A DNA stretch of 64,000 bases from positions 30,758 to 94,757 of the forward strand of contig DAHXMM010000003.1 of assembly GCA_027371715.1 (NCBI GenBank), given 5' to 3'. A model generated the notes under the pieces. It was not told the DNA's origin, made no database searches, and saw nothing but the letters and a program-made list of their open reading frames with translations. Within the stretch, counting starts at the first letter, position 1; each line of letters opens with the position of its first letter. Source of the DNA: Elusimicrobiota bacterium (GTDB lineage Bacteria; Elusimicrobiota; Elusimicrobia; UBA1565; UBA9628). A program made the position numbers and the translations under genes. Positions 5,053-43,549 of the stretch are shown here, piece by piece.

Positions 5053-9626
<4,574 letters not shown>

Positions 9627-14336: not shown

Positions 14337-14692
14337 GGGGGTGAATTAGGTTCGACAGGAGTGGACGGACCCTCGGTCGCAGGCCCTGGAAGGTCTGAGC
14401 CAGGATAAAATCAGGCCAAAAAAAATAAAAGCCAACACACAGCTGGCTTGGGCCACCGCCTAATCCGCGGTTGACCTACGTCGGTCCCTGACGCCCGCTA
14501 GGGGAGTTCCGACGTCATGAGCGGGATGCAGGTCTTTCTTGCTTTTTCCGTCGAGAGGGCCTAAAGACACAACGGAGATAGTTTGGGGATACTCGTTCGG
14601 CTGTTTTCCCCGAATGAAACTAAAGCCGGACTAAGCCTGTAGTGACCTGGGTCGGCCTCTTTTGGACGCGGGTGCGATTCCCGCCACCTCCA
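14337..14692 (+). ncRNA. ssrA: tmRNA (transfer-messenger RNA)
   Basis: The 5' end GGGGGUGAAUUAGGUUCGACAGG pairs with the 3' end ...GGACGCGGGUGCGAUUCCCGCCACCUCCA. This gives an acceptor stem with a G3:U pair, a T-arm and a discriminator A. An internal tag-like frame runs GCC AAC ACA CAG CTG GCT TGG GCC ACC GCC TAA (14431-14463). A T-run follows, and CCA is not encoded. Confidence 0.9.
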
Positions 14693-14721
14693 CGGTTTTT
14701 TTGTTTTTTTAGATAAACTCA

Positions 14722-32445: not shown

Positions 32446-33330
32446 ATGAACCGTCTTGGCGGATTTCTAACTACCTTAGCCTTATCCGTAACTTTGATTT
32501 TTTCCGTCTCTGGTTGCGGGACGCTCATTGACCCGGGACACGAAGGGCTTCGCCAATTAGTTTTTCGCGAGCATTCTCTTCAGAAAGAACCGCTGACCGA
32601 CGGATTCTACTGGCATTTCCCCTGGAACAATATTTTTGTCTATAAAACTACCTGGCAAAGCCGGACCGAAGAAGTGCACGTTCTGACGGAAGAAGCTCTT
32701 CATATTTTCGTTCGCGTCACCGTCACTTATCGCCCGAAAGCGAGTCAACTCTACGAATTGGCGCAAACCATCGGCCCCCATTACTACAGCCAGGTCATCC
32801 GCCCGCCGTTTGTGACGATTACCAGAACGGAGTTCGCCTGGCACAAACACAACCGCTTGGGGCAAGATTCTCCGATTATCGAAAGCGACATTTTGAAAAA
32901 ATTGAAAGCGGCTTTGGCCGATATGCCGCTAGTCATCGCCCGCGTCTCCATTGATCACATTCAATACGACCGACAAGTGACCGACGCGATATCGGATAAA
33001 ATCGCGACTCACCAAAAAGCGGAGCAGAAAGTTTACGAGGAAGACATCGCAAAAGAAAACGCCGACATCGCCCGCACCAACGCCCAAGGCCAAGCCGACG
33101 CCGAGGATATTCAGGCTTCCGGAGACGCCAAGGCGATTTTAGTCAAAGCCCAGGCGAAAGCCAAGGCTCAAATGGAGATTTCAAAGACTCTGACCCGGCA
33201 ATACATTCAGCTCAAGGCCTTCGACAACCCCGCGACGCGCTATTACTTTGTTCCCACCGGAAAAGACGGACTTCCCCTCATCATCAACACGGGATCCTCT
33301 AATCCCAACTTTAATTCCATAACCAAATAA
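32446..33330 (+). CDS. SPFH/Band-7 (prohibitin-like) lipoprotein
   Basis: Lipobox-like LIFSVSGC, an SPFH body, and a C-terminal Ala/Lys/Gln-rich coiled coil. Confidence 0.75.
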   Translation: MNRLGGFLTTLALSVTLIFSVSGCGTLIDPGHEGLRQLVFREHSLQKEPLTDGFYWHFPWNNIFVYKTTWQSRTEEVHVLTEEALHIFVRVTVTYRPKASQLYELAQTIGPHYYSQVIRPPFVTITRTEFAWHKHNRLGQDSPIIESDILKKLKAALADMPLVIARVSIDHIQYDRQVTDAISDKIATHQKAEQKVYEEDIAKENADIARTNAQGQADAEDIQASGDAKAILVKAQAKAKAQMEISKTLTRQYIQLKAFDNPATRYYFVPTGKDGLPLIINTGSSNPNFNSITK

Positions 33331-33338
33331 CGCGCCGC

Positions 33339-33668
33339 ATGAAAACCATCCTTCTTTTGACTTGCTCAAATATTTTCATGACCTTCGCTTGGTACGGGCA
33401 TTTGCGCTACCGGCAGGTTCCGCTGTGGGAAGTCATTCTAATTAGCTGGGGCATCGCTTTTTTTGAATATTGTTTTCAAGTTCCGGCCAACCGCATCGGT
33501 TACGGCGAGTTTTCGGTTGTTCAGCTTAAAACCATCCAGGAAATCATCACCCTAACCGTGTTCGTGGTCTTTGCCACGTTCTATTTAGGCGAAAAACTCA
33601 GATGGAATCATTTTGTCGGATTTTCTTTCCTTATTTTAGCCGCATTTTTCATTTTCCAACATCAGTAA
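33339..33668 (+). CDS. small DMT-superfamily membrane protein (DUF486-like)
   Basis: 109 aa with 4 TM segments. NIFMTFAWYGHLR is typical of this family. Confidence 0.65.
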   Translation: MKTILLLTCSNIFMTFAWYGHLRYRQVPLWEVILISWGIAFFEYCFQVPANRIGYGEFSVVQLKTIQEIITLTVFVVFATFYLGEKLRWNHFVGFSFLILAAFFIFQHQ

Positions 33669-33681
33669 ACCTGCCGATGAG

Positions 33682-33702
33682 CATCGTCGGTAGTGATATA
33701 AT
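33682..33702 (+). repeat. 21-nt direct repeat, left copy (CATCGTCGGTAGTGATATAAT)
   Basis: 18/21 identical to 35762-35782. It ends in TGaTATAAT, an extended -10-like sequence. Confidence 0.5.
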
Positions 33703-33871
33703 CTCAAGAGAGATGCGGGCGGAATTAGTGGAAAGTAGGATTTCTCTTTTCACGATCCCCTCAGTCGCGAGGCCATCAAGGGGCTTCCCTTGTTCTCCGA
33801 TTTAGGCGACGACGTTTTCATTCCCGAGCCGGAAAAAGATTTTCCGCCCAGGCATTTTTTGGAGATCGCCA

Positions 33872-34402
33872 ATGAATGAGAAAGATGTTAATTCCATGAT
33901 CTGCTATGTGCGGCAGGCAAATGGAATGCTTGAGATTTTGGAGGAAAATAAAAAAAACCAAGAAATCACGCTACGAGAACTTCAAGGAAAATTCAAGGAA
34001 AAATATAAAGCAGATCCAGGGAATGATGATTTCTCTTTCTGCAACCAACACCAGTTCTCCGCTTCCTTGTTTATCTATATCGGCATACCATCCCAGAAAT
34101 TTTTTAACAGCCTCCCAGAATGTTCTGTTGAAAAACTTGTTCCTGATTGGGGAGTCCCACCCTCCGTACAAGAGTCGAGATGGAACCTAAAAGAACTCAT
34201 TCGTCATCTGCGCAACGCGATTGCACATGGCAATGTCTCTATTTCTCCTGATTTAGAATTTACCTTTGTAGACGAGAAAAAGGGGAATTCTATAGAAATT
34301 AAATTTAATAGGGATGAGCTTCAACGTTTTAGCCAGGCGTTAAGTTGGTGGTGCTTAACAAAAGACATAACACTTAAAGGACTGCGTGACAATCACTCTT
34401 AA
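33872..34402 (+). CDS. HEPN-motif protein (putative RNase)
   Basis: 176 aa. The R-x4-H motif lies in LIRHLRNAIAHGNVSI within a predicted helical domain. There is no intact partner gene. Confidence 0.55.
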   Translation: MNEKDVNSMICYVRQANGMLEILEENKKNQEITLRELQGKFKEKYKADPGNDDFSFCNQHQFSASLFIYIGIPSQKFFNSLPECSVEKLVPDWGVPPSVQESRWNLKELIRHLRNAIAHGNVSISPDLEFTFVDEKKGNSIEIKFNRDELQRFSQALSWWCLTKDITLKGLRDNHS

Positions 34403-34522
34403 GTGATCAGGAAAAGCCTATTACGTAGGAAAGACCCGTTCCGCATTATGGTACCCTGGGGCAATCCAAGCCAATGACACCGCAAAAATACAATAAATTC
34501 ATGGATATTTTTATTTGTTTCT

Positions 34523-34564
34523 ATTGCGTAGTTATATTGCGTTTTACGCAATACGCTACGCAAT
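34523..34564. promoter_or_regulatory. 42-nt nested palindrome with four ATTGCGT/ACGCAAT half-sites (operator-like)
   Basis: ATTGCGTAG-ttat-ATTGCGT-ttt-ACGCAAT-acg-CTACGCAAT. It lies 29 nt upstream of the methyltransferase remnant. Confidence 0.45.
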
Positions 34565-34592
34565 GTCAATGCATGGGGAGTCTTAGCGCGAA

Positions 34593-34760
34593 ATGTTGAA
34601 AGTTGAAAACCACAACCCTGATGTTTTAAGCTGCTTGGCGAATTTGAGCAGTGACGAGGTCTTTACGCCGCCTCGCCGCGCGTGGGGAACTACCCAATGC
34701 TTGCCAGCATTTGGGAATTTTTCTCAATCATCACGACGCTCTTTCCAACCCAGATCATGA
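34593..34760 (+). pseudogene. remnant of a DNA methyltransferase (N-terminal ~27 codons only)
   Basis: MLKVENHNPDVLSCLANLSSDEVFTPP resembles, from memory, the conserved N-terminus (..NPDVL.CLANLS.DEVFTPP) of large N6-adenine RM methyltransferases. After that the frame becomes unrelated sequence and stops after 55 codons. Confidence 0.45.
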
Positions 34761-34812
34761 TTGGATTTGAATCAAGCAAAAAGATATCCTGTTAGAGAAC
34801 TTTAGAAATACA

Positions 34813-35712
34813 ATGCCTATTCCTAATTACCAGCCCTGCATGCTGCCTCTCCTGGAATTTTATTCGGATAATAAAGAGCATTCAGCTCATGAAGCCTGTG
34901 CCCAACTTGCGAAAAAGTTTCAATTAACCGGCGCTGAGAGACAAACGCTGTTGCCTAGCGGTCAACAAACGGTTTTTGAAAATAGAGTTGGATGGGCTCG
35001 AACCTATTTAAAAAAGTCAGGGCTCATTGACGCTCCTAAACGAGGCGTTAATAAAATTACCTCCCGAGGCCTGGAGGTCTTGCAAAAAAATCCGACCTCT
35101 ATTGATGTACGGTTTCTTGAACAATTCCAGGAATTCAAGGAATTTAGGGATTTACGGAGAAATGACGGAGAAACTGAGCCCGAGAACGGCGATGATACGC
35201 CGGAAGAGTTACTCGAACGAGCGCATCAAACGCTCCAATCTTCCATTCTCACCGACTTACTCCAGCGGCTTAAGGCGTGTTCCCCATCTTTTTTCGAGAA
35301 AATTGTCGTTGAGGTAATTTTAAAAATGGGTTATGGCGGCAGCAGGCAGGATGCGGGTAAAGCCATAGGCCAAACCGGAGACGGCGGCATTGATGGAATT
35401 ATTAAACAAGATAAACTAGGCCTCGATGCGATCTATATTCAAGCGAAGAAATGGGAAAGCGTCGTTGGCAGACCTGAAATTCAAAAATTTGTCGGCGCAT
35501 TGACCGGTCAACGCGCCAGAAAAGGCGTTTTTATAACGACTTCTGATTTTTCCTCCGGGGCAAAAGATTATGCGTCTCAAATCGACACGAAGGTTATCCT
35601 TGTGGATGGGAAAATGTTGGCACGGTTGATGTTGGAACATAATGTCGGAGTATCGCTCGTCAGCACTTACGCCGTTAAAAAAATCGATTCCGATTATTTC
35701 TCGGAAGAATAG
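34813..35712 (+). CDS. mrr: Mrr-family type IV restriction endonuclease
   Basis: N-terminal Mrr_N winged helix (MPIPNYQPCMLPLLEF...). The C-terminal PD-(D/E)xK core is GDGGIDGIIKQDKLGLDAIYIQAKKW. Confidence 0.85.
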   Translation: MPIPNYQPCMLPLLEFYSDNKEHSAHEACAQLAKKFQLTGAERQTLLPSGQQTVFENRVGWARTYLKKSGLIDAPKRGVNKITSRGLEVLQKNPTSIDVRFLEQFQEFKEFRDLRRNDGETEPENGDDTPEELLERAHQTLQSSILTDLLQRLKACSPSFFEKIVVEVILKMGYGGSRQDAGKAIGQTGDGGIDGIIKQDKLGLDAIYIQAKKWESVVGRPEIQKFVGALTGQRARKGVFITTSDFSSGAKDYASQIDTKVILVDGKMLARLMLEHNVGVSLVSTYAVKKIDSDYFSEE

Positions 35713-35761
35713 TCATCCGAAGACAACCACAAATCACTCCCCATTAAATTTCCCTAATAAA

Positions 35762-35782
35762 CATCGTCGGTAGTAGTACAAT
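35762..35782 (+). repeat. 21-nt direct repeat, right copy (CATCGTCGGTAGTAGTACAAT)
   Basis: 18/21 identical to 33682-33702. Together the two copies bracket the HEPN / MTase-remnant / Mrr segment. Confidence 0.5.
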
Positions 35783-35859
35783 TTAAGACATGGCGTTCAA
35801 TCGAGAAGATGGATTCTTTATGTTTGAAAATACGCCAAAAATTTAGGGAGACAATAACA

Positions 35860-36187
35860 ATGCACCGCTCTTTTTCTCAAAGGCATGAACACAAGCCGGT
35901 CAAAGACCAATTACAGATCGAATCAATGGATGATAGCCTGAGAAACAGGCTGTGGGATATTGTTTTTTTATCAACTTAAATTGGATACTCTGAAAAAAAA
36001 TGCTCCATTTTCCATTGTAGATTCGAGTATTATGGCGTTAATATACAAACTTTGGCATCTTTATTTTAAGCAGCCACAAGACACAATTCCAGGTAATGGA
36101 TATGATATCGCACAAAATATCCGAAACTATTTTTTCGATTGCAAAATAATCCACATTTCCTTTTTTCAGCAGCAATATTCAGCATGA
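35860..36187 (+). pseudogene. frameshifted and truncated AbiJ N-terminal-domain-like gene
   Basis: An AGGGAG RBS precedes MHRSFSQRHEHKPVKDQLQIESMDDSLRNRLWDIVF. The frame breaks at a T7 run (35963-35969) and continues in +1 as ..YQLKLDTL...NIRNYFFDCK. It ends just upstream of the XRE promoter. Confidence 0.4.
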
Positions 36188-36200
36188 TTTACGAGCGGTA

Positions 36201-36238
36201 TTGACAAAATACGAAAGGCGTTGTATAATAATTACAAC
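36201..36238 (+). promoter_or_regulatory. consensus sigma70 promoter plus overlapping inverted repeat (operator) of the XRE cassette
   Basis: TTGACA (36201-06), a 17-nt spacer, then TATAAT (36224-29). The inverted repeat GTTGTA-N7-TACAAC (36220-36238) spans the -10. The GGAGAGGGGG RBS follows. Confidence 0.65.
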
Positions 36239-36261
36239 ACCAAAAGGAGAGGGGGTCTCAC

Positions 36262-36636
36262 ATGAACCACCATGGGAGTTTTGGGGAATATTTTAAGAGT
36301 TTGCGTTTGAAGAGAGGTCTCACCTTGCGAGATTTTTGCCTGCAAAACGGTTTTGATCCTGGAAATATCAGCAAACTCGAGCGCGGCATTTTCGCGCCCC
36401 CACAGAGCGATGAAAAGTTGCGCGATTACGCGAAGGCCTTGGGGTTGCGCGAGGGGAGCGCCGAATGGATTGAATTTTTTGATTTAGCCGCGGCTGAGGG
36501 CGGACGACTTCCCGAGGACATACGGAAAGATTCCAGCGTGATCGAAAGACTCCCCGCTTTCTTTCGGACTCTACGCGATAAAAAGCTTCCCGGCGAGGCG
36601 CTGGACAAACTAATCGAGAAACTTAAGCATTCTTAA
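36262..36636 (+). CDS. XRE-family helix-turn-helix regulator
   Basis: FGEYFKSLRLKRGLTLRDFCLQNGFDPGNISKLERG is a canonical HTH_3 motif. Confidence 0.75.
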   Translation: MNHHGSFGEYFKSLRLKRGLTLRDFCLQNGFDPGNISKLERGIFAPPQSDEKLRDYAKALGLREGSAEWIEFFDLAAAEGGRLPEDIRKDSSVIERLPAFFRTLRDKKLPGEALDKLIEKLKHS

Positions 36637-36648
36637 GAGAATTCGCGC

Positions 36649-37269
36649 GTGACCCTTAATTTACCTCGGCGCGATTATAAAGAACTTCGCCGCGTGGCGG
36701 GTGAGTTTCTCTCCGAATATCATCCTGAAGACATCACTCCAGTTCCCATAGAGCAAATCATAGAAACACGGTTTAAAATATCCCTGATTCCAATTCCCGG
36801 CCTCTTGGATGAATTTAAAATTGATGGATTTATTTCCTCAAGTCTAAAAGAAATAAGCATTGACGAATTTGTCTATATGAAGCGGGAGCGCCGGGCTCGG
36901 TTTACTCTTGCTCATGAGCTTTCGCATCTCATTTTGCACCGCGACATCATTTTGGCTCGCCGCGTTGAGACGATTGAAAATTACAAGACATTTCGCGACT
37001 CCATGGAGGACGAATACCGCTGGCTGGAGTGGCAGGCGAGCTGCTTGGCAGGGCTCATCCTTGTCCCGACAGTTCCTCTTCGCGCGCAATTTGAGTTATC
37101 CCGCAAACAAGCCGAGACCGCGGGCCTTAACCCCTCAACCGAGCCCGCCGTTAAGTACATCTGCGACTATCTCTCCGACATTTTTAATGTTTCCGCGCAA
37201 GTGGTCCAATATCGGCTGACCAAGGAAGGACTAGTCACGGTGGAATTTCCTTTCTCGGACGGCGTTTGA
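36649..37269 (+). CDS. ImmA/IrrE-family Zn metallopeptidase (COG2856-like)
   Basis: GTG start 12 nt after the XRE gene. HEXXH lies in FTLAHELSHLILH, and a downstream E-rich helix (EWQASCLAGLILVP) is typical of this family. Confidence 0.8.
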   Translation: MTLNLPRRDYKELRRVAGEFLSEYHPEDITPVPIEQIIETRFKISLIPIPGLLDEFKIDGFISSSLKEISIDEFVYMKRERRARFTLAHELSHLILHRDIILARRVETIENYKTFRDSMEDEYRWLEWQASCLAGLILVPTVPLRAQFELSRKQAETAGLNPSTEPAVKYICDYLSDIFNVSAQVVQYRLTKEGLVTVEFPFSDGV

Positions 37270-37287
37270 GAATTCAGAAAATGAGGC

Positions 37288-38229
37288 ATGACTGAGCCTA
37301 TGTCCCAGACAATCTACCTGCCAAAGCGACTGGTTAAACCGCCCATCCGGTTGGTTTTGGATTCTTCTATTGTATTTGGATTAGGCGAAAAAAACTGGAA
37401 GTTCTTAGAAGATTTGACAGAGGCTAAAAAAATCCAGGCATGGGATTCCGTTGTGGGCTTATGTGAAATTATTTGTCATGTCCATAAATCGGATAGCCCA
37501 GAACATCACGATGCGAAATGGCTCGCCAATAGATGCGCGAATTTAGCGCGAATAACTCCAAATCACATGCTTCCAAGCCCTGGAGTTGTGGTCAGCAGGG
37601 CATTGCGCGAGTGGCTCAAATGGCCCAAGACCGCAAGAATTGAGGAATCAAAAATATTTCTTAGAATTCGCAAGAAATTAATAGACCAACCCTCATTTTT
37701 AAAGTCGAATGAGATTCGCGCCGCTATTGTTGAGCCGACGGATACGGTAGAAAAATCTTTTTGTCGAAGCCTTGAATCGTTGCGGGAGGAACTAAAAAAA
37801 GACTATGTCGTCAAGGCGCAATCCACCGTATCACCAAACCAATTTAGAGAGATGATTATCGGCTATATACAACGCAAGCCTGAATTCCAATCAAGCTTAT
37901 TTTGCCATTTTATGAATCATCACAATGTTGGAATCGAGGCAATGGCGGCCATTGCGCTAAAATGGCGGGAAATCCCGTATGTCGCCGATCTGATGTCCAT
38001 TTACAATCTGCAAATTGGCAATTTCATCGCACATAGTCGAAAAGCCGAGTTTTCGGATTTTTTAGATTTTGAATTGGCCGCTTATATTGCTTCCAATCAT
38101 ATTGACTTCTTTGTGACGAATAATAAACGCGATTTTCAAGAGGCATTTAAATATTATGCGCCTTTGGCGAACAAGGTCCTTTCTTGGGAAGATTTTAAGA
38201 AACGCATGGAATCATCCAATGGCCGCTAA
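37288..38229 (+). CDS. PIN-like domain protein with a large internal insert (putative effector)
   Basis: N-terminal IRLVLDSSIVFGL is a PIN strand-1 Asp motif. C-terminal FLDFELAAYIASNHIDFFVTNNKRDF is a PIN-like distal motif. About 230 aa of unassigned sequence lies between them. Confidence 0.45.
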   Translation: MTEPMSQTIYLPKRLVKPPIRLVLDSSIVFGLGEKNWKFLEDLTEAKKIQAWDSVVGLCEIICHVHKSDSPEHHDAKWLANRCANLARITPNHMLPSPGVVVSRALREWLKWPKTARIEESKIFLRIRKKLIDQPSFLKSNEIRAAIVEPTDTVEKSFCRSLESLREELKKDYVVKAQSTVSPNQFREMIIGYIQRKPEFQSSLFCHFMNHHNVGIEAMAAIALKWREIPYVADLMSIYNLQIGNFIAHSRKAEFSDFLDFELAAYIASNHIDFFVTNNKRDFQEAFKYYAPLANKVLSWEDFKKRMESSNGR

Positions 38230-38944
38230 AAAAGATACTGTCATATCAGCCAGAGATGCCGCGCTCACCACAACAGAAGCGGGATTGTCTCTTATTAACG
38301 GCGGGGGCATTCTATCTGCCTTGCTGAATCAGTTTATTCCCAAGACTTGGCAAAAACGGACCAATGAAGAAATGGAGTGTTTAAGAAATGAATTCCAGCG
38401 ACTAGATCAAAAAATTGATAAAAACAAAATTTCATCTGAAAATTTTCATATTACGGTGCTTCAGGTAATCATGGGTGCGCTAATTGAAAATCACGCGGAG
38501 AAGCGGGCCGCGTTTCGAGCCATTTTGCTTAACGAGGCGATTTCTCCTGCTCCAAATCCGGAACTAGACTTATTTATTAAAATCACAAGGGATTTGACCC
38601 TTGAGCATATTCAGGCGTTGAAAGTGTTAAATGATCCAGTTTCCGCCCAATCGCAACACCTTGAAATTAGCGCGAAAATAAACGCCATCACAAGCACCAA
38701 TTCCGAGACTATCCCCCAAAGCGACATTATTTCAGTTTTGCTCAAGCCTTCGCTTCCGGAAATTCCAGAAGATCATTTTCTCTTGATTCTCCATGGACTT
38801 ACAAGTCTTGGACTACTTGTAGATCCAGGGATGGCCTGGGGCGGGGTAACCGCTTGGAAATCCTCCTTGAATCCGCAAAAAATATTGGAGAAAAGAATCA
38901 CGCCGCTAGGGGAACGCTATATTCAATTTATCACGCTGCCTTGA
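38219..38944 (+). CDS. hypothetical protein (241 aa), last gene of the XRE-ImmA cassette
   Basis: ATG at 38219 overlaps the previous gene by 11 nt. The protein looks helical, and its C-terminal LLILHGLTSLGLLVD resembles a winged-helix recognition segment. I recognise no catalytic motif. Confidence 0.45.
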   Translation: MAAKKDTVISARDAALTTTEAGLSLINGGGILSALLNQFIPKTWQKRTNEEMECLRNEFQRLDQKIDKNKISSENFHITVLQVIMGALIENHAEKRAAFRAILLNEAISPAPNPELDLFIKITRDLTLEHIQALKVLNDPVSAQSQHLEISAKINAITSTNSETIPQSDIISVLLKPSLPEIPEDHFLLILHGLTSLGLLVDPGMAWGGVTAWKSSLNPQKILEKRITPLGERYIQFITLP

Positions 38945-38969
38945 ACCGATTTTGAGTTAAACCAATTAA

Positions 38970-41900
38970 ATGAACGACTCCGAAAGCCGCCTTGCGGCCC
39001 AATTTGATCTCGACTCCAACATGGTCGTCGAAGCGGCGGCCGGAACGGGAAAAACTTCCCTTCTGATTGCGAGAATTCTTTCCCTGGTTATAGCGGGGCA
39101 GGGAGGGAAAGGCGTTTCTCTCGAAAAAATCGCGGCTTTAACCTTTACCAACAAAGCCGCCGCGGAAATGAAAATTCGCCTAGCCCAACAACTCCATCAA
39201 GTCTCGATTTTCTCCCGCCATCCCGAAAACGTTTCAGAAACGCTGAAAGAATTACTTTTCTCGCTTCAAAAACGATTCTCACTAAATCAAACGACATTCG
39301 AAGAACGCGCCGCATCCGCTCTGAACTTAATCGAACGAGCTCCCATTGAAACCTTTCATTCCTTTATGGCGCGAATTCTAAGACTTTATCCTCTTGAAGC
39401 GGGGCTTTCCCCAGCCTTTGAAATCGATCAAGGGCGAAGTTTTAACCGGATATTTGAATCGGAATGGGAAGCGTGGCTGGATATTGAATTGGGGCCTTCC
39501 GCGCCGCGCGAAAAAGACTGGCTCTTAATTCTTAAATTTGTCTCTATTAAGGATTTAAAAAAATTGGCGAAAGAACTCTGCCAAGAGAAAATACCCTCGG
39601 AAATGATTCACAACGTTTCGAAAGAGGCCCTAGAAAGCCTGGAAATACTGCGGCGAAAATTAAAACAGATTCCCACGGGGAAACCCGCTCCCAAAAGCCG
39701 GGCCTTTCTCGATCGATTCTCCGAATTAGAAGACCAAGTTGAAAAGCTGATTCAAGCGGGAAGCCAAAAAAATTCTGAAATCCCTGAGAATTGGAATCCT
39801 CTCCTTTTACCGCCTTCGTGGCCTAAATGGCCAAAGGCGTGGGAAGAATACGCAGACGAAGAAAAAATTTACGAGCGCGCGAAAAAAATAGTCGAATTAT
39901 CTTCTCCAAAAAAGCACGCTTTGGTGGAAAAGGCGATTATTCTCCTGACGCCCTTCCGCAAAAAATTCAGCGACACCTTTCAAAGGGCCGGATTTATTTC
40001 TTTTGACGGCCTTTTAACCGAGGCCCGAAATCTTTTCAAAGACAATCTGCGAATTCGAAATGAAATTAAGCGCTTTTATCATTCCTTTTTGGTCGATGAA
40101 TTTCAGGACACCGACCCTCTTCAAGGAGAAATTCTTTTTTTTCTGGCGGAAGACATCAATTCGGCGGCGACGGATTGGAAACAAGCGCGTCCAGGCCCGG
40201 GCCGGATTTTCGTCGTCGGCGACCCCAAACAATCCATTTACCGCTTTCGCGGGGCCGACATCGCCGCCTATCAAGATTTCACGCAAAAAATTTTGTCATA
40301 CCCTCATTCCAAATTCTTGTCTTTAAATCTTAATTTCAGGAGTAGGCCCGAGGTTTTATCTCCGATTAATTCTCTCTTCTCAAAAACGATGGAAGAAAAA
40401 AAAGGGTTGCAAGCCGCTCATCAAGAACTCCTTTCAAGCAAAACCTCAAATTCTAATGCCGCGCTTGAGATCGTTAAGCTCAGTTTTTCTAAATCTCCCG
40501 CCAGTTCCGAAGAATTTCAAAAAACGGAAACCCAATGGATTTGCCAGTGGATTCAGAAAAATTGCGGCCCCAAGAAAAAATTTCGCTACAAGGACGTAGC
40601 CGTTCTTTGGAGAACGCAAACAGGCAGTTCTCATCTTATAGAAGCCTTTAAGGACGCTCAAATTCCCTATGCCGCCCAACTAAAGAATTCTCTCTATTCT
40701 TCCCAAGAATTCATTGATTTTACAAACCTCATTCGCGTCCTGGACAATCCCGCGGATGAAATCTCTCTAACCGCGCTCATGCGCTCCCCTCTCAGCGACA
40801 TCAAGGATTCAGATTTAGCGGATCTTAAAAGCGGAACAAAAAACTCATTGCCCCTAGAAAAAACTCTCGACTATCTTCGCAAGCGCCTCGGAAGAATTCC
40901 ACTGCCGCTTTTTTTAGATCAAACGCTCAAGGAAACCGCTCTTTTGCCTATCGCCGCCAAAGCCTACCACGGTTCCCAAGCCGTCTCAAACCTCCTCAAA
41001 GTCGCCCGACTCGCGGAAGAAATGGCCGATAAGGAAGGGCTCAGCGCTCGGGAAATGCTCGAACGCATATCCGAGGAAATTAAATCAGGAGAGGAGGAAG
41101 GGGAAAATCCCCTGGCGGATGAATCTTTTGACTGCGTTCGGCTGTTGACCATCCATAAAGCTAAAGGCCTTGAATTTCCCATCGTCTTTATTCCCCGCAT
41201 CTCATCGCCTGGAAAAGACCATGAAATTTCTCCTTTTCTCTCCGACTGGAAAACGCAAACGGTAGGCTTTTATCTTTCCAAGGCCCATGCGGCTTCCCTC
41301 AACATGGCAATTCTTCAAATCAACGAGAAAGAAAGACTTGCGCACGAAGTCCTGCGTCTTCTCTATGTCGGATTGACCCGGGCCAAGGAAAAAATATTTC
41401 TCATTGGAGACAAGGATTTCTCCCCGGGGAGATATTCTTTCTCGCAATTTTTATCGCAAGACCCCAGTCTCCCATCGCAAGATTTAACCGCTGATTCTCT
41501 TCTCACAAATTCAAAATCCCCCCCGCGCAAACAAGCGAGGGAAATTTCCATTCCGCCCAAAGACTGGGCGGCGCGCTGGGAAAAACGCTCTGAATTAAAG
41601 CGCGCGTCTTTATCTCCCTGGTCCTCAAGCCCCACCCAAACCCAAGCCAACCTTTTTGGGGAAGAAGATTCCCTTCCCCGACAAAACCAAGCTTCTCTCT
41701 TAGGACAACTTTGCCACGAAACGCTCAAAAGATTAGATTTTAAAAATCCAGGCGAGGTCAAAAAAATAATCAGCGCCGCTTACGCTTCCTTGGCTCAACT
41801 AAACTTAGAACCTCCGGGAAAAAACCTGCTCAATGAGGCCTCGGCTTTGATCGATAATTTTTTACGCTCGTCTTCAGCCAAAGAAATCGAACACGCCGAA

Positions 41901-42191
41901 ATTTTAGGCCGGGAAATTCCTTTTGCCTATCCCAACAAAGGCTCTCTCATTAAAGGAACTATTGATTTGGTCTATCAAACCAAACATCAAACCGTCATTG
42001 TCGACTATAAAACCGGTTCTCCGCCTATGTCCAAAGAAGCGGAAAAATCTGCTCTTGAGCGCTACCGCGCTCAAGCTGAAACCTATCTCCTATCCTTGGA
42101 GAAATCTTTAGGGAAAAAAGCTCGGTTTCAACTTCTTTTCTTGCGACGGCCGGATAGCCCTATATGGTATAATGATGAGGACTTCTTATAG
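38970..42191 (+). CDS. UvrD/PcrA-type SF1 helicase with C-terminal RecB-family (PD-(D/E)xK) nuclease domain (AddA-like)
   Basis: Motif I AAAGTGKTS, motif II DEFQDT, motif III VGDPKQSIYRFRGAD, and helicase motif TIHKAKGLEF. The C-terminal nuclease signature is GTIDLVYQTKHQTVIVDYKTG. Confidence 0.85.
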   Translation: MNDSESRLAAQFDLDSNMVVEAAAGTGKTSLLIARILSLVIAGQGGKGVSLEKIAALTFTNKAAAEMKIRLAQQLHQVSIFSRHPENVSETLKELLFSLQKRFSLNQTTFEERAASALNLIERAPIETFHSFMARILRLYPLEAGLSPAFEIDQGRSFNRIFESEWEAWLDIELGPSAPREKDWLLILKFVSIKDLKKLAKELCQEKIPSEMIHNVSKEALESLEILRRKLKQIPTGKPAPKSRAFLDRFSELEDQVEKLIQAGSQKNSEIPENWNPLLLPPSWPKWPKAWEEYADEEKIYERAKKIVELSSPKKHALVEKAIILLTPFRKKFSDTFQRAGFISFDGLLTEARNLFKDNLRIRNEIKRFYHSFLVDEFQDTDPLQGEILFFLAEDINSAATDWKQARPGPGRIFVVGDPKQSIYRFRGADIAAYQDFTQKILSYPHSKFLSLNLNFRSRPEVLSPINSLFSKTMEEKKGLQAAHQELLSSKTSNSNAALEIVKLSFSKSPASSEEFQKTETQWICQWIQKNCGPKKKFRYKDVAVLWRTQTGSSHLIEAFKDAQIPYAAQLKNSLYSSQEFIDFTNLIRVLDNPADEISLTALMRSPLSDIKDSDLADLKSGTKNSLPLEKTLDYLRKRLGRIPLPLFLDQTLKETALLPIAAKAYHGSQAVSNLLKVARLAEEMADKEGLSAREMLERISEEIKSGEEEGENPLADESFDCVRLLTIHKAKGLEFPIVFIPRISSPGKDHEISPFLSDWKTQTVGFYLSKAHAASLNMAILQINEKERLAHEVLRLLYVGLTRAKEKIFLIGDKDFSPGRYSFSQFLSQDPSLPSQDLTADSLLTNSKSPPRKQAREISIPPKDWAARWEKRSELKRASLSPWSSSPTQTQANLFGEEDSLPRQNQASLLGQLCHETLKRLDFKNPGEVKKIISAAYASLAQLNLEPPGKNLLNEASALIDNFLRSSSAKEIEHAEILGREIPFAYPNKGSLIKGTIDLVYQTKHQTVIVDYKTGSPPMSKEAEKSALERYRAQAETYLLSLEKSLGKKARFQLLFLRRPDSPIWYNDEDFL

Positions 42192-42201
42192 GATTAACTC
42201 T

Positions 42202-42525
42202 ATGTTTTATCATTTACTTTTAGCCGTTCATGTCTGCGTCTGCGTTCTGATGATTTTAGTCGTGTTGCTTCAAACCGGCCGAGGAGCAGGCTTGGCTCTC
42301 TTTGGAAGTTCCGGGGATTCTCTCATCACGACCCCCACCGGGTCTAGCTTCATGCGAAATTTAACCGGGGCGCTGGCCGGAACTTTCGCGTTCACTTCTC
42401 TCTTTCTTTCTTTATTGTCGGCAAAAAGCGGAATGTCGAGCGTCACTTCTCGTTTCTCCTTGCCGGCGGCTCCAGTTTCTCAACAAGCCCCCGCTGTTCC
42501 AGCCGCTTCCACAAAAAAGAAATAA
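42202..42525 (+). CDS. secG: preprotein translocase subunit SecG
   Basis: Start moved to MFYHLLLAVHV. LLQTGRGAG is the SecG signature. It has two TM helices. Confidence 0.8.
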   Translation: MFYHLLLAVHVCVCVLMILVVLLQTGRGAGLALFGSSGDSLITTPTGSSFMRNLTGALAGTFAFTSLFLSLLSAKSGMSSVTSRFSLPAAPVSQQAPAVPAASTKKK

Positions 42526-42534
42526 TTTCATTAC

Positions 42535-42616
42535 GCGCGGGTGGCGGAACTGGCAGACGCGTACGTTTGAGGGGCGTATGCCGCAAGGCGTGAGGGTTCG
42601 AGTCCCTCCCCGCGCA
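42535..42616 (+). tRNA. tRNA-Leu (anticodon GAG)
   Basis: Hand-folded: acceptor GCGCGGG/CCCGCGC, D-arm GCGG..CGC, anticodon arm TACGT-TTGAGGG-GCGTA, long variable arm TGCCGCAAGGCGT, T-arm GAGGG-TTCGAGT-CCCTC, discriminator A. CCA is not encoded. Confidence 0.9.
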
Positions 42617-42786
42617 AAAACTCTATTCAAGGAAAGGGACTCAAAGCCGAGCCGCGCGCGTCCGGGGGACGAGAAGCGAAACGAAGTTTCGCGTCAGCGC
42701 GGCCAGCGGGCCGCGAGGGAAGAGCGAAGCGACGGATGAGCGGGAGGCCCTCCCCGCGCGAATCTAAGGATAGGAATCAAAATCAT

Positions 42787-43212
42787 ATGAGCTCACCGTT
42801 AATTTCTTTTAGTTGCCGAATTTACGGGATTCTAGTTGAAGACGGAAAAGTTTTAATGACGCGAAGCCGTTTTATCGACCGCGAGTTCGTCAATTTTCCC
42901 GGGGGCGGGATAGAAATTGGAGAAGCCCCCCAAGACGCCTTGATTCGAGAATACCAAGAAGAAACCGGTTTATCCATTAAGATTAAAAAAATTATTTTCT
43001 CCAGCCAGAAACTCCATCTCTCCACTCAAAGACCGATTCAAATCGTCAGTTCTTTCTGGCGGGTGGAAAAAACCGGAGGAACGCTCAAGGAAAACGGAAA
43101 TGACGACGACGTCCTTAAGCTTTTCTGGGCCGAACTCTCCGCGATCCCAAAAGGGGAGATGTTTTCTTCCGATCGGGAATTTGCCGATCTTCTGCCAAGT
43201 CTCTTATTTTAA
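42787..43212 (+). CDS. NUDIX hydrolase
   Basis: Nudix box GGGIEIGEAPQDALIREYQEETGL. Start chosen at MSSPLISF. Confidence 0.75.
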   Translation: MSSPLISFSCRIYGILVEDGKVLMTRSRFIDREFVNFPGGGIEIGEAPQDALIREYQEETGLSIKIKKIIFSSQKLHLSTQRPIQIVSSFWRVEKTGGTLKENGNDDDVLKLFWAELSAIPKGEMFSSDREFADLLPSLLF

Positions 43213-43549
43213 GAACGTCCTGGGCGATTTGGTTTTTCAAATCTTGAAGAGAGGCAAATTTTTTTTGGCCGCGAATTTTCTTAAGCAAAGACACCTTGAG
43301 TTTTGTTCCATAAAGGTTCCCTTTAAACCCAGGGATATGAACCTCAAAAACGCGGCGGCTCCCGTTGACGGTCGGGCGAGTCCCCACGCTCACGGCCGCA
43401 AGCCGAACGCCCAATTTCACACTGTCAACTTTCCCAGCATAAACCCCGTCTTTGGGAAAGACGGCGGGATCTATTTCAAGATTAGCGGTCGGATATCCGA
43501 GTTTTCTTCCAATCTTATCTCCGGAAACGACTCGCCCGCAATAAAGCAT
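43115..43549 (-). CDS. riboflavin kinase (monofunctional, RibF C-terminal domain only)
   Basis: GRVVSGDKIGRKLGYPTANL, GVYAGKV, VGTRPT and FEVHIPGFKGNLYG motifs. There is no FMN adenylyltransferase domain. Confidence 0.8.
   Translation of the reverse strand: MLYCGRVVSGDKIGRKLGYPTANLEIDPAVFPKDGVYAGKVDSVKLGVRLAAVSVGTRPTVNGSRRVFEVHIPGFKGNLYGTKLKVSLLKKIRGQKKFASLQDLKNQIAQDVLKIRDLAEDRQIPDRKKTSPLLGSRRVRPRKA

Follow-up and report, generated by a model that had tools for sequence, protein, structure and literature searches.

A lineage-specific mosaic in an Elusimicrobiota defence islet: a proposed XRE/ImmA-type switch in front of a rare protein family with a likely PIN-like core

Does a compact run of four genes, headed by a repressor and a peptidase, form a defence system in its own right, or is it an assembly of parts that lead separate lives elsewhere? 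The question is raised by a cassette at positions 36,201 to 38,944 of a 64,000-nucleotide stretch of DNA from an Elusimicrobiota bacterium (the window: contig DAHXMM010000003.1 of assembly GCA_027371715.1, positions 30,758 to 94,757). A preliminary description of the window had proposed a self-contained four-gene system, in which an XRE-family helix-turn-helix (HTH) protein and an ImmA/IrrE-type peptidase control a PIN-like nuclease and a protein of no recognisable kind. We find that the cassette is a mosaic of one lineage and not an evolutionarily conserved four-gene system, because the family of its third gene (g3; the genes are called g1 to g4 in their order) is a single-gene module that elsewhere rides in defence operons of the restriction-modification (R-M) type. 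For the window itself we favour, with middling confidence, a lineage-specific arrangement in which an autoregulated switch of the ImmR/ImmA type, akin to CapH/CapP, stands before two cargo genes, of which g3 would be the effector. The elements of the cassette, in coordinates of the window, are these.

36201-36229, + strand: sigma-70-type promoter, TTGACA-17-TATAAT, matching the consensus at 12/12 positions
36217-36241, no strand assigned: candidate operator, a palindrome (GGCGTTGTA-N7-TACAACACC) that covers the -10 hexamer
36262-36636, + strand: g1, XRE-family HTH repressor, CapH/ImmR/DdrO-like, 124 aa
36649-37269, + strand: g2, short ImmA/IrrE-family Zn metallopeptidase, 206 aa, GTG start
37288-38229, + strand: g3, PIN-like protein, 313 aa (from AlphaFold2, hhalign, a PDB profile search and conserved acidic residues)
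38219-38944, + strand: g4, orphan protein, 241 aa, overlapping g3 by 11 nt

Spacers of 12 nt (g1-g2) and 18 nt (g2-g3) and the 11-nt overlap of g3 with g4 leave little room between the genes, no internal terminator was found within the cassette, and public assemblies carry the same four gene calls; in promoter, palindrome, reading frames and spacing the locus is as the preliminary description gave it. Copies of the cassette recur in several metagenome samples at 98-100% protein identity, all of them from one lineage.

Whether the four genes belong together can be asked of the relatives of g3, which are few. Searched exhaustively with HMMER, 1.84 billion cluster representatives yielded 19 g3-family proteins at E <=1e-3, most of them full length at 262-309 aa and six of them shorter fragments. 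Word-indexed homologue searches for g3 and g4 gave next to nothing, scans of plasmids and of viral contigs gave no relatives of g3, and a metagenome scan added one short contig. No model in Pfam, NCBIfam, PADLOC or PHROGs matches g3 above threshold, and neither g3 nor g4 meets a family of PADLOC-DB 2.0.0 (the HEC and PDC candidates included) at E up to 1, so that a check with PADLOC against already named systems gives none for either gene. The full g3-family alignment was too divergent for locus scanning; the neighbourhood survey draws on 11 further loci at which a g3 relative occurs, and at 8 of these the flanks are usable. In none of the 11 does a relative of g1 or g2 (HTH, M78) or of g4 lie near the g3 relative, and at none of the 8 informative loci does a small antitoxin-like gene adjoin it. 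With the XRE protein, the M78 peptidase and g4 all missing from the company of g3 relatives, the idea of a self-contained four-gene system has to be given up. The g3 relatives are packed tightly and co-directionally into other operons, listed here by locus.

L006: between an HmaB methylase and an HmaC ATPase gene, with a 4-nt overlap upstream
L027: directly 5' of a type I hsdR gene (HSDR_N 8e-26)
L001: 4 nt after a split type IIG-like R-M (methyltransferase plus T5orf172/helicase)
L010: between a HATPase_c_3 gene and unknown, PLD and SNF2 genes (matches to Zac, PDC-M27 and DrmD models)
L028 and L029: flanked by two BPD_transp_2 permease genes, within an ABC-transporter operon
L009 and L007: amid unannotated genes

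According to published work (10.1101/2024.01.29.577857), genes embedded in Hma, type I and similar operons can be predicted to function in defence, and a defence role for the g3 family would fit this context. In the permease operons the g3 relatives occupy 7152-8000 (L028) and 1297-2169 (L029); at L028 an N6_N4 methyltransferase and NotI R-M pair lies 3 kb upstream, and the transporter operon holds an extra unannotated open reading frame (ORF) of 206 aa.

What kind of protein is g3? The preliminary description had pointed to PIN-like motifs at its two ends, parted by a large insert. The quoted motifs are present, and we consider it likely that g3 has a PIN-like nuclease core, made up of residues ~17-97 and ~249-313 on either side of a helical insert of ~150 residues (~98-248), with D25, E60, D257 (with D260) and D282 as putative catalytic residues. 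An AlphaFold2 model built on a 20-sequence alignment (pLDDT 87.3, pTM 0.84; a run on a two-sequence alignment, at pLDDT 34, was of no use) has a strand at 20-24, helices, a strand at 49-54, helices and a short strand at 94-95, followed by the all-helical segment 98-248, a helix at 255-268, a strand at 274-276, helices, a strand at 297-298 and a helix at 300-311. This order, b1-a-b2-a-b3-(insert)-a-b4-a-b5-a, is the PIN order with an insert after strand 3, between that strand and the helix bearing the third acidic residue. When the insert is deleted, hhalign aligns g3 with VapC colinearly from end to end (P=2e-4; the comparison set was six real VapC sequences from plasmids, the Shigella VapC being 100% identical to NZ_CP026791.1), placing D25/E60/D257/D282 of g3 on D7/E42/D98/E119 of VapC and VTNNKRDF on VTNNTREF. 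The score of 30.1 was reached by 0/100 column-permuted controls (11.9 +/- 2.7), and the reversed alignment scored 10.5. Run against 177,635 PDB sequences, the insert-deleted family profile ranks VapC at 1-5 with full-length alignments (E 0.007-0.05); the whole-length g3 profile returned noise alone from the PDB, with sulfotransferase matches on the insert. Mean pairwise identity in the family is 20-36%, and D25 is kept in 14/15 sequences, E60 in 15/15, D257 and D260 in 20/20 each and D282 in 16/20.

It could be argued that such a resemblance is convergent or degenerate and that g3 is a non-catalytic scaffold or regulator. The Pfam models PIN, PIN_3 and PIN_12 match g3 at E 6e-4 to 0.1, under their cut-offs, and do no better with 20 family members or with insert-deleted constructs; Foldseek finds no significant match for the model in the PDB (best E 0.5, TM <=0.4) and nothing significant in the viral structure library BFVD; the fourth acidic position is H, N or G in 4/20 sequences; and two relatives sit in a transporter operon. 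The poor Foldseek values we ascribe to the insert, and most of the first 22 places in that search go to VapC, SMG6/EST1A and archaeal PIN structures. What speaks for a catalytic protein is that three acidic positions are (nearly) invariant despite an otherwise low identity (~20-25%), that VTNNxRDF of g3 equals VTNNTREF of VapC, that the colinear alignment was matched by no permutation, and that VapC is the top-ranked PDB family. We therefore regard a g3 that is no nuclease as very unlikely. The check by profile and structure thus bears out the PIN-like core claimed by the preliminary description, and stops short of a significant fold match (Foldseek E >=0.5) or a Pfam PIN assignment above threshold. 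By analogy, g3 would be an Mg-dependent PIN-type nuclease, for which a VapC-like RNase is the nearest model.

Variation in g3 bears on the role of the insert. The g3 relatives diverge much faster than their neighbours: the permeases that flank them at L028 and L029 are 75% identical between the two loci, the embedded g3 relatives 27%, and at every locus the GC content of the g3 relative is below that of its surroundings. Within the lineage of the window, sister strains show 1-4 residue differences in g1, g2 and g4, and a variant g3 (P0002) is 93-96% identical to that of the window over residues 53-125, 53% over residues 126-230, which lie in the insert, and 100% over residues 231-313. This sharp mosaic and the fast divergence together suggest that the insert behaves as a hypervariable module, and probably it serves as a sensor or specificity domain. 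P0002 itself is a 1168-nt ENA contig (k141 assembly) that matches the window at ~37441-38467 and in which residues 1-83 of g4 are fused in frame to the g3 variant from residue 52; its length equals a 1027-nt unit (g3 codon 52 to g4 codon 83) plus k=141, as for a circular path in the assembly graph, which could be due to a partial duplication in tandem, to a circular molecule or to an artefact.

These observations permit a bolder proposal, which we offer tentatively and rate as somewhat doubtful: the g3 family may be a new class of operon-embedded single-gene defence nuclease, with the insert as sensor or specificity part and a VapC-like PIN domain as effector, possibly a PrrC-like back-up or guard for R-M-type systems, here captured under an ImmR/ImmA switch. 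If that is true, an arms race at the insert, or the exchange of cassettes there, would account for the 53% patch and for the contrast of 27% with 75% in the liv operons.

How would g3 be controlled in the window? The promoter is the sole 12/12 match in the 10 kb scanned (33300-43300), and perfect TTGACA/TATAAT sites are expected by chance ~0.02 times per 64 kb (both strands, 16-18 nt spacer). The palindrome has its core, GTTGTA-N7-TACAAC, at 36220-36238 and extends to 9-nt arms (GGCGTTGTA and TACAACACC, 36217-36241). As a bare pattern it is not rare (0.46 expected at <=2 mismatches), and no second copy was found across the window; it is suggestive because of its placement over the -10, typical of an operator, and we infer that g1 binds it. 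A search of the cassette for Rfam elements found none, and the repeated GAGAATTC after the stops of g1 and g2 was rejected as a signal, its frequency being at chance level.

The identification of g1 as an XRE protein holds up well. Its best match is the PADLOC model capH (6.1e-8, residues 5-122 on profile positions 5-96 of 103, the C-terminal dimerisation region included), followed by the repressor family phrog_4 of PHROGs (5.5e-7); the Pfam models HTH_19, HTH_31 and HTH_3 score slightly below their cut-offs, and DdrO and CapH are among its weak PDB matches. Its C-terminal region contains F101-R102, a suggestive candidate, by analogy, for the site at which g2 might cut. For g2, too, the assignment as an ImmA/IrrE peptidase with HELSH is confirmed: Peptidase_M78 matches at 4e-12 and as far as residue 191, the motif H89-E90-x-x-H93 is accompanied by E127, and the alignment to the CapP structure 7T5T spans the HExxH and E-Q-A motifs with the Zn ligands aligned. 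The match to PADLOC capP (9e-11) is limited to profile positions 4-123 of 242, the peptidase part, and NCBIfam adds a weak match to the spr1629 repressor/antitoxin; among full-length relatives the closest, 23-30% identical, are short ImmA proteins from phages and plasmids. A GAF domain has no space in a protein of 206 aa whose M78 match reaches residue 191, and between the two Zn-binding motifs of g2 there is no cysteine, so that g2 is better called ImmA-like than CapP proper. We note in passing a Methylocystis rosea plasmid (NZ_CP044330.1, 144072-144913 and flanks) on which an HTH-ImmA pair is followed by a co-directional exonuclease-domain gene and is divergent from a multiubiquitin/ThiF operon; both orientations of the regulator thus occur within one locus.

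The fourth gene is harder to place, and the preliminary description was right to recognise no motif in it: g4 has no domain in Pfam, NCBIfam or PADLOC and no match in the PDB. Among 5.8 billion clusters it has no homologue but itself, its near-identical copies being restricted to the same lineage, and no relatives were found in phage records or viral contigs. Its single weak match is to phrog_26838 (unknown function; 1.2e-5, residues 28-165). A kinship with genes downstream of g3 relatives, such as a 246-aa ORF at L010, was considered and rejected for want of any similarity. That g4 is a partner or modulator of g3 is a guess.

Taken together, these features could also describe a three-component toxin-antitoxin (TA) or addiction module, in which g3 is a toxin neutralised by g1 or by the translationally coupled g4 and in which g2 destroys the neutraliser on stress, so that the module would chiefly stabilise the islet and not act against phages. 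Xre-COG2856 genes are often linked to PIN toxins (PMC2701414), and VapB52, an antitoxin with an IrrE-type peptidase, cleaves itself at an FR motif and so releases VapC52 (PMC13273310); g1 has an FR motif, the 11-nt overlap of g3 and g4 is of a kind common in TA pairs, and the weak spr1629 match of g2 points the same way. But no antitoxin-like gene, XRE gene or g4 relative stands beside the g3 relatives at the 8 informative loci, so that the family is apparently tolerated without one, and a VapBC-type antitoxin precedes its toxin, whereas g4 comes after g3. We accordingly think an addiction module unlikely here, and return to an ImmR/ImmA-type switch with g3 as effector.

Such a switch has to be seen in its setting, for the cassette is the last part of an inserted islet whose other features, with the gene that follows, are these.

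33669-38969, no strand assigned: inserted defence islet, ~5.3 kb, between the DMT_6 stop and the ATG of an AddA/RecB-like gene
33872-34402, + strand: HEPN gene, pEK499_p136 family (Pfam 1e-9)
34593-34760, + strand: remnant (N-terminus) of a methyltransferase of the Eco57I/type IIG-like kind (86% identical in nucleotide sequence to L001 5989-6047)
34813-35712, + strand: Mrr-type restriction endonuclease (Mrr_N 1.2e-30, Mrr_cat 1.7e-35)
35809-35979, + strand: AbiJ-like remnant, AbiJ_NTD4 (Pfam 4.4e-8, 34.2 bits against a cut-off of 34)
38970-42191, + strand: AddA/RecB-like helicase-nuclease, a core gene outside the islet (domain matches)

The island of restriction and abortive-infection (Abi) genes reported around the cassette is therefore real, and we regard it as a genuine, horizontally acquired and partly decayed defence islet. 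It is absent from four related Elusimicrobia-type metagenome-assembled genomes (MAGs; L012-L015), in which the order is purS-purC-guaA-guaB / SPFH-DMT_6 with the AddA-like ATG ~15-25 nt later, and its GC content is 0.43-0.46 against ~0.49 elsewhere. The AbiJ_NTD4 remnant, which lies between Mrr and the cassette promoter and adjoins an ORF at 35960-36187, indicates that at least one Abi gene has been lost. A recombinase, integrase or other mobile-element gene was sought in the 5.3-kb insert and none was found. The nearest tRNA gene, a tRNA-Leu(GAG) at 42535-42616, lies outside the insert, beyond the AddA/RecB-like gene and just 3' of the AddA-like and SecG genes, and like the tmRNA gene at 14337-14695 (Rfam 156 bits; tag ANTQLAWATA) it does not abut the islet. 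A 26-nt direct repeat (33677-33702 and 35757-35782) brackets the segment of HEPN, methyltransferase remnant and Mrr; its exact core of 13 nt, CATCGTCGGTAGT, occurs twice in the window against 0.01 expected, and within the first copy of the repeat there is an extended -10-like TGATATAAT. Such a repeat could be the trace of an insertion of its own, or of a promoter region that was duplicated.

The islet also cuts the AddA/RecB-like core gene off from SPFH-DMT_6, the operon that ancestrally lay upstream of it (38945-38970; ~9990-10001 in L012-L015). That gene, with orthologues of 67-79% identity in the same place in L012-L015, begins 25 nt past g4, and no terminator-like site was found between the two, so that it is probably transcribed from the islet, and XRE/ImmA control may now extend to a recombination and repair nuclease. 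As a component of the system it was rejected, being a core gene that does without the islet in the four relatives and is unlinked to g3 in the L001/L015 genome.

The nearest intact relative of the islet suggests how the mosaic arose. At a different chromosomal site, the island at L001 (Elusimicrobia MAG GCA_027406905.1) has an intact type IIG-like R-M system and is without g1, g2 and g4. Three places in it are colinear with the window islet, namely two methyltransferase remnants (window 33738-33885 and 34608-34711, L001 5216-5363 and 5983-6086) and g3, from which we conclude that the two islands share ancestry and that Mrr and XRE-ImmA replaced the R-M gene bodies in the window lineage. Homology to L001 starts just inside g3 and stops at its stop codon, and GC content shifts from 0.50 and 0.49 in g1 and g2, which is genome-like, to 0.42 and 0.44 in g3 and g4; on these grounds we take the cassette to be a recombinational mosaic, with g3 as the older mobile piece.

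A mosaic of this kind invites the explanation that the juxtaposition is incidental, with g1-g2 the leftover immunity module of a degraded prophage or integrative and conjugative element (ICE), g3 and g4 unrelated passengers, and their shared transcription of no selected function. The islet is decayed and rearranged, as its methyltransferase and AbiJ remnants and the direct repeat around one segment attest; GC content shifts at the g2/g3 boundary; the nearest full-length relatives of g2 are phage and plasmid short ImmA proteins; and g3 is independent of XRE-ImmA everywhere else. Against this stand four intact ORFs, tightly packed at 12, 18 and -11 nt, which share one perfect promoter and have no terminator among them, and the catalytic residues of g2 and g3, which are likewise intact; several metagenome samples preserve the arrangement, though they are of one lineage, and no integrase or mobile-element gene is left of the supposed element. 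We judge mere juxtaposition improbable, and continue with the switch and its cargo.

Repressors of this type bind palindromic operators as dimers and are inactivated when a partner M78 peptidase cleaves them (CapH/CapP, DdrO/IrrE, ImmR/ImmA), a mechanism established for CapH/CapP and IrrE/DdrO (10.1101/2022.04.27.489752; 10.64898/2026.05.16.725639). By the same logic, a g1 dimer on the palindrome over the -10 would keep the whole operon low until a trigger, by analogy DNA damage, single-stranded DNA (ssDNA) or a factor encoded by an invader, switches on g2. The peptidase would then cut the C-terminal region of g1, possibly at F101|R102, and the derepressed consensus promoter would fire in a burst of g3 and g4, while read-through would probably raise the AddA/RecB-like enzyme as well. 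The g3 protein might then act as a PIN-type, probably RNA-directed nuclease, and the pulse is expected to be self-limiting, since g1 lies in the same transcript. The outcome could be phage restriction, abortive infection or stabilisation of the islet.

Several of our own results weigh against this proposal. A single near-clonal lineage accounts for all copies of the cassette, and at L028 and L029 the g3 relatives have an ABC-transporter operon around them, a context other than defence. That g3 relatives do without a dedicated regulator or antitoxin implies that the switch is not intrinsic to the family and that g3 may not be toxic. Each of the tests for a PIN domain is weak singly, with Foldseek giving no significant match, Pfam PIN below threshold and a best database-wide E of 0.007. 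Since g2 has neither a GAF domain nor the cysteine switch, the known ssDNA trigger cannot be assumed for it; the role of g4 is guessed; and the regulators are not divergent from their cargo, as discussed below.

We would place the weight of this work on the cargo. The regulatory half of the cassette is ordinary, a further case of an XRE/ImmA-type switch wired to defence cargo, and what is new in it is its GAF-less, co-directional form. The g3 family is the more useful result. It is insert-bearing, hypervariable and operon-embedded, it is missing from each of the four libraries (Pfam, NCBIfam, PADLOC and PHROGs), and in it an unannotated PIN-like protein with a large, fast-evolving insert recurs in Hma, type I and type IIG operons. 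If g3 is indeed a nuclease whose insert senses infection or the loss of R-M, it would extend the range of embedded back-up defences and offer a compact sensor-effector architecture. The impact is limited by the rarity of the family (19 clusters in 1.84 billion), by its uncultured hosts and by the fact that the Xre-COG2856-PIN logic has already been described.

How, finally, does the locus compare with what is known? With embedded defence genes such as PrrC, HEC-03 and HEC-09, the g3 relatives share a co-directional place beside or within Hma, type I and type IIG genes, and PIN or PIN-like domains are present in some of the embedded candidates described by Payne et al. (2024; 10.1101/2024.01.29.577857). 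In contrast to PrrC and HEC-03/HEC-09, g3 is one gene, with no ABC ATPase as partner, and matches no PADLOC model; in the window it is not inside an intact R-M operon. With VapC it has in common the predicted topology, the four acidic residues (D7, E42, D98 and E119 in the Shigella VapC) and VTNNxR(D/E)F; it differs in its ~150-residue helical insert, in having no VapB-like antitoxin and in matching no Pfam PIN model above threshold.

The combination of HTH protein, IrrE-type peptidase and PIN nuclease was predicted as a three-component TA system by Makarova et al. (2009; Xre-COG2856-PIN, PMC2701414), and VapBC52 of M. tuberculosis, in which a fused IrrE-peptidase antitoxin frees VapC52 by proteolysis (NAR 2026, PMC13273310), shares the same gene content. 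The suggestion of a protease-gated nuclease system thus stands as to its parts and setting, and its general idea, predicted in 2009 and demonstrated in 2026, is not new. The window differs in that HTH and peptidase are separate proteins, in its fourth gene, and in that g3 belongs to a different, insert-bearing family, with an HTH or M78 neighbour at 0/11 other loci.

Another comparison is with CapH/CapP, known since 2022 to regulate diverse defence cargo (10.1101/2022.04.27.489752). Here, too, an XRE repressor with a C-terminal domain and a Zn metallopeptidase of the HExxH/Glu kind are neighbours of defence cargo, PADLOC matches the two best to capH and capP, and an FR dipeptide is found in the C-terminal region of the repressor; cleavage occurs at F82|R83 in CapH (Lau et al., 2022, 10.1101/2022.04.27.489752) and at a conserved F75|R76 in VapB52 (PMC13273310). 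CapP, however, consists of a peptidase (1-141), an HTH (142-182) and a GAF domain (182-288), with ssDNA bound in the groove between peptidase and GAF (10.64898/2026.05.16.725639), whereas g2 matches the peptidase part alone, without GAF domain or cysteine switch, and the cargo is not CBASS. The regulators were divergent from the cargo in all the CapH/CapP loci surveyed by Lau et al. (10.1101/2022.04.27.489752), whereas g1 and g2 are co-directional and co-transcribed with theirs, all on the + strand.

In its orientation the cassette resembles the ImmR/ImmA module of ICEBs1. From ImmR/ImmA, and from DdrO/IrrE, the cassette is set apart by a nuclease-like cargo, by an islet without integrase, excisionase or other mobile-element gene and by an identity below 30% to any characterised member. 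In ICEBs1 the gene order is immR-immA-int, with repressor, short M78 peptidase and cargo co-directional. The window repeats that plan, in that a repressor is followed, after a 12-nt spacer, by a stand-alone short M78 peptidase that aligns over its full length with the short ImmA proteins of phages and plasmids, and the cargo lies downstream in the same operon.

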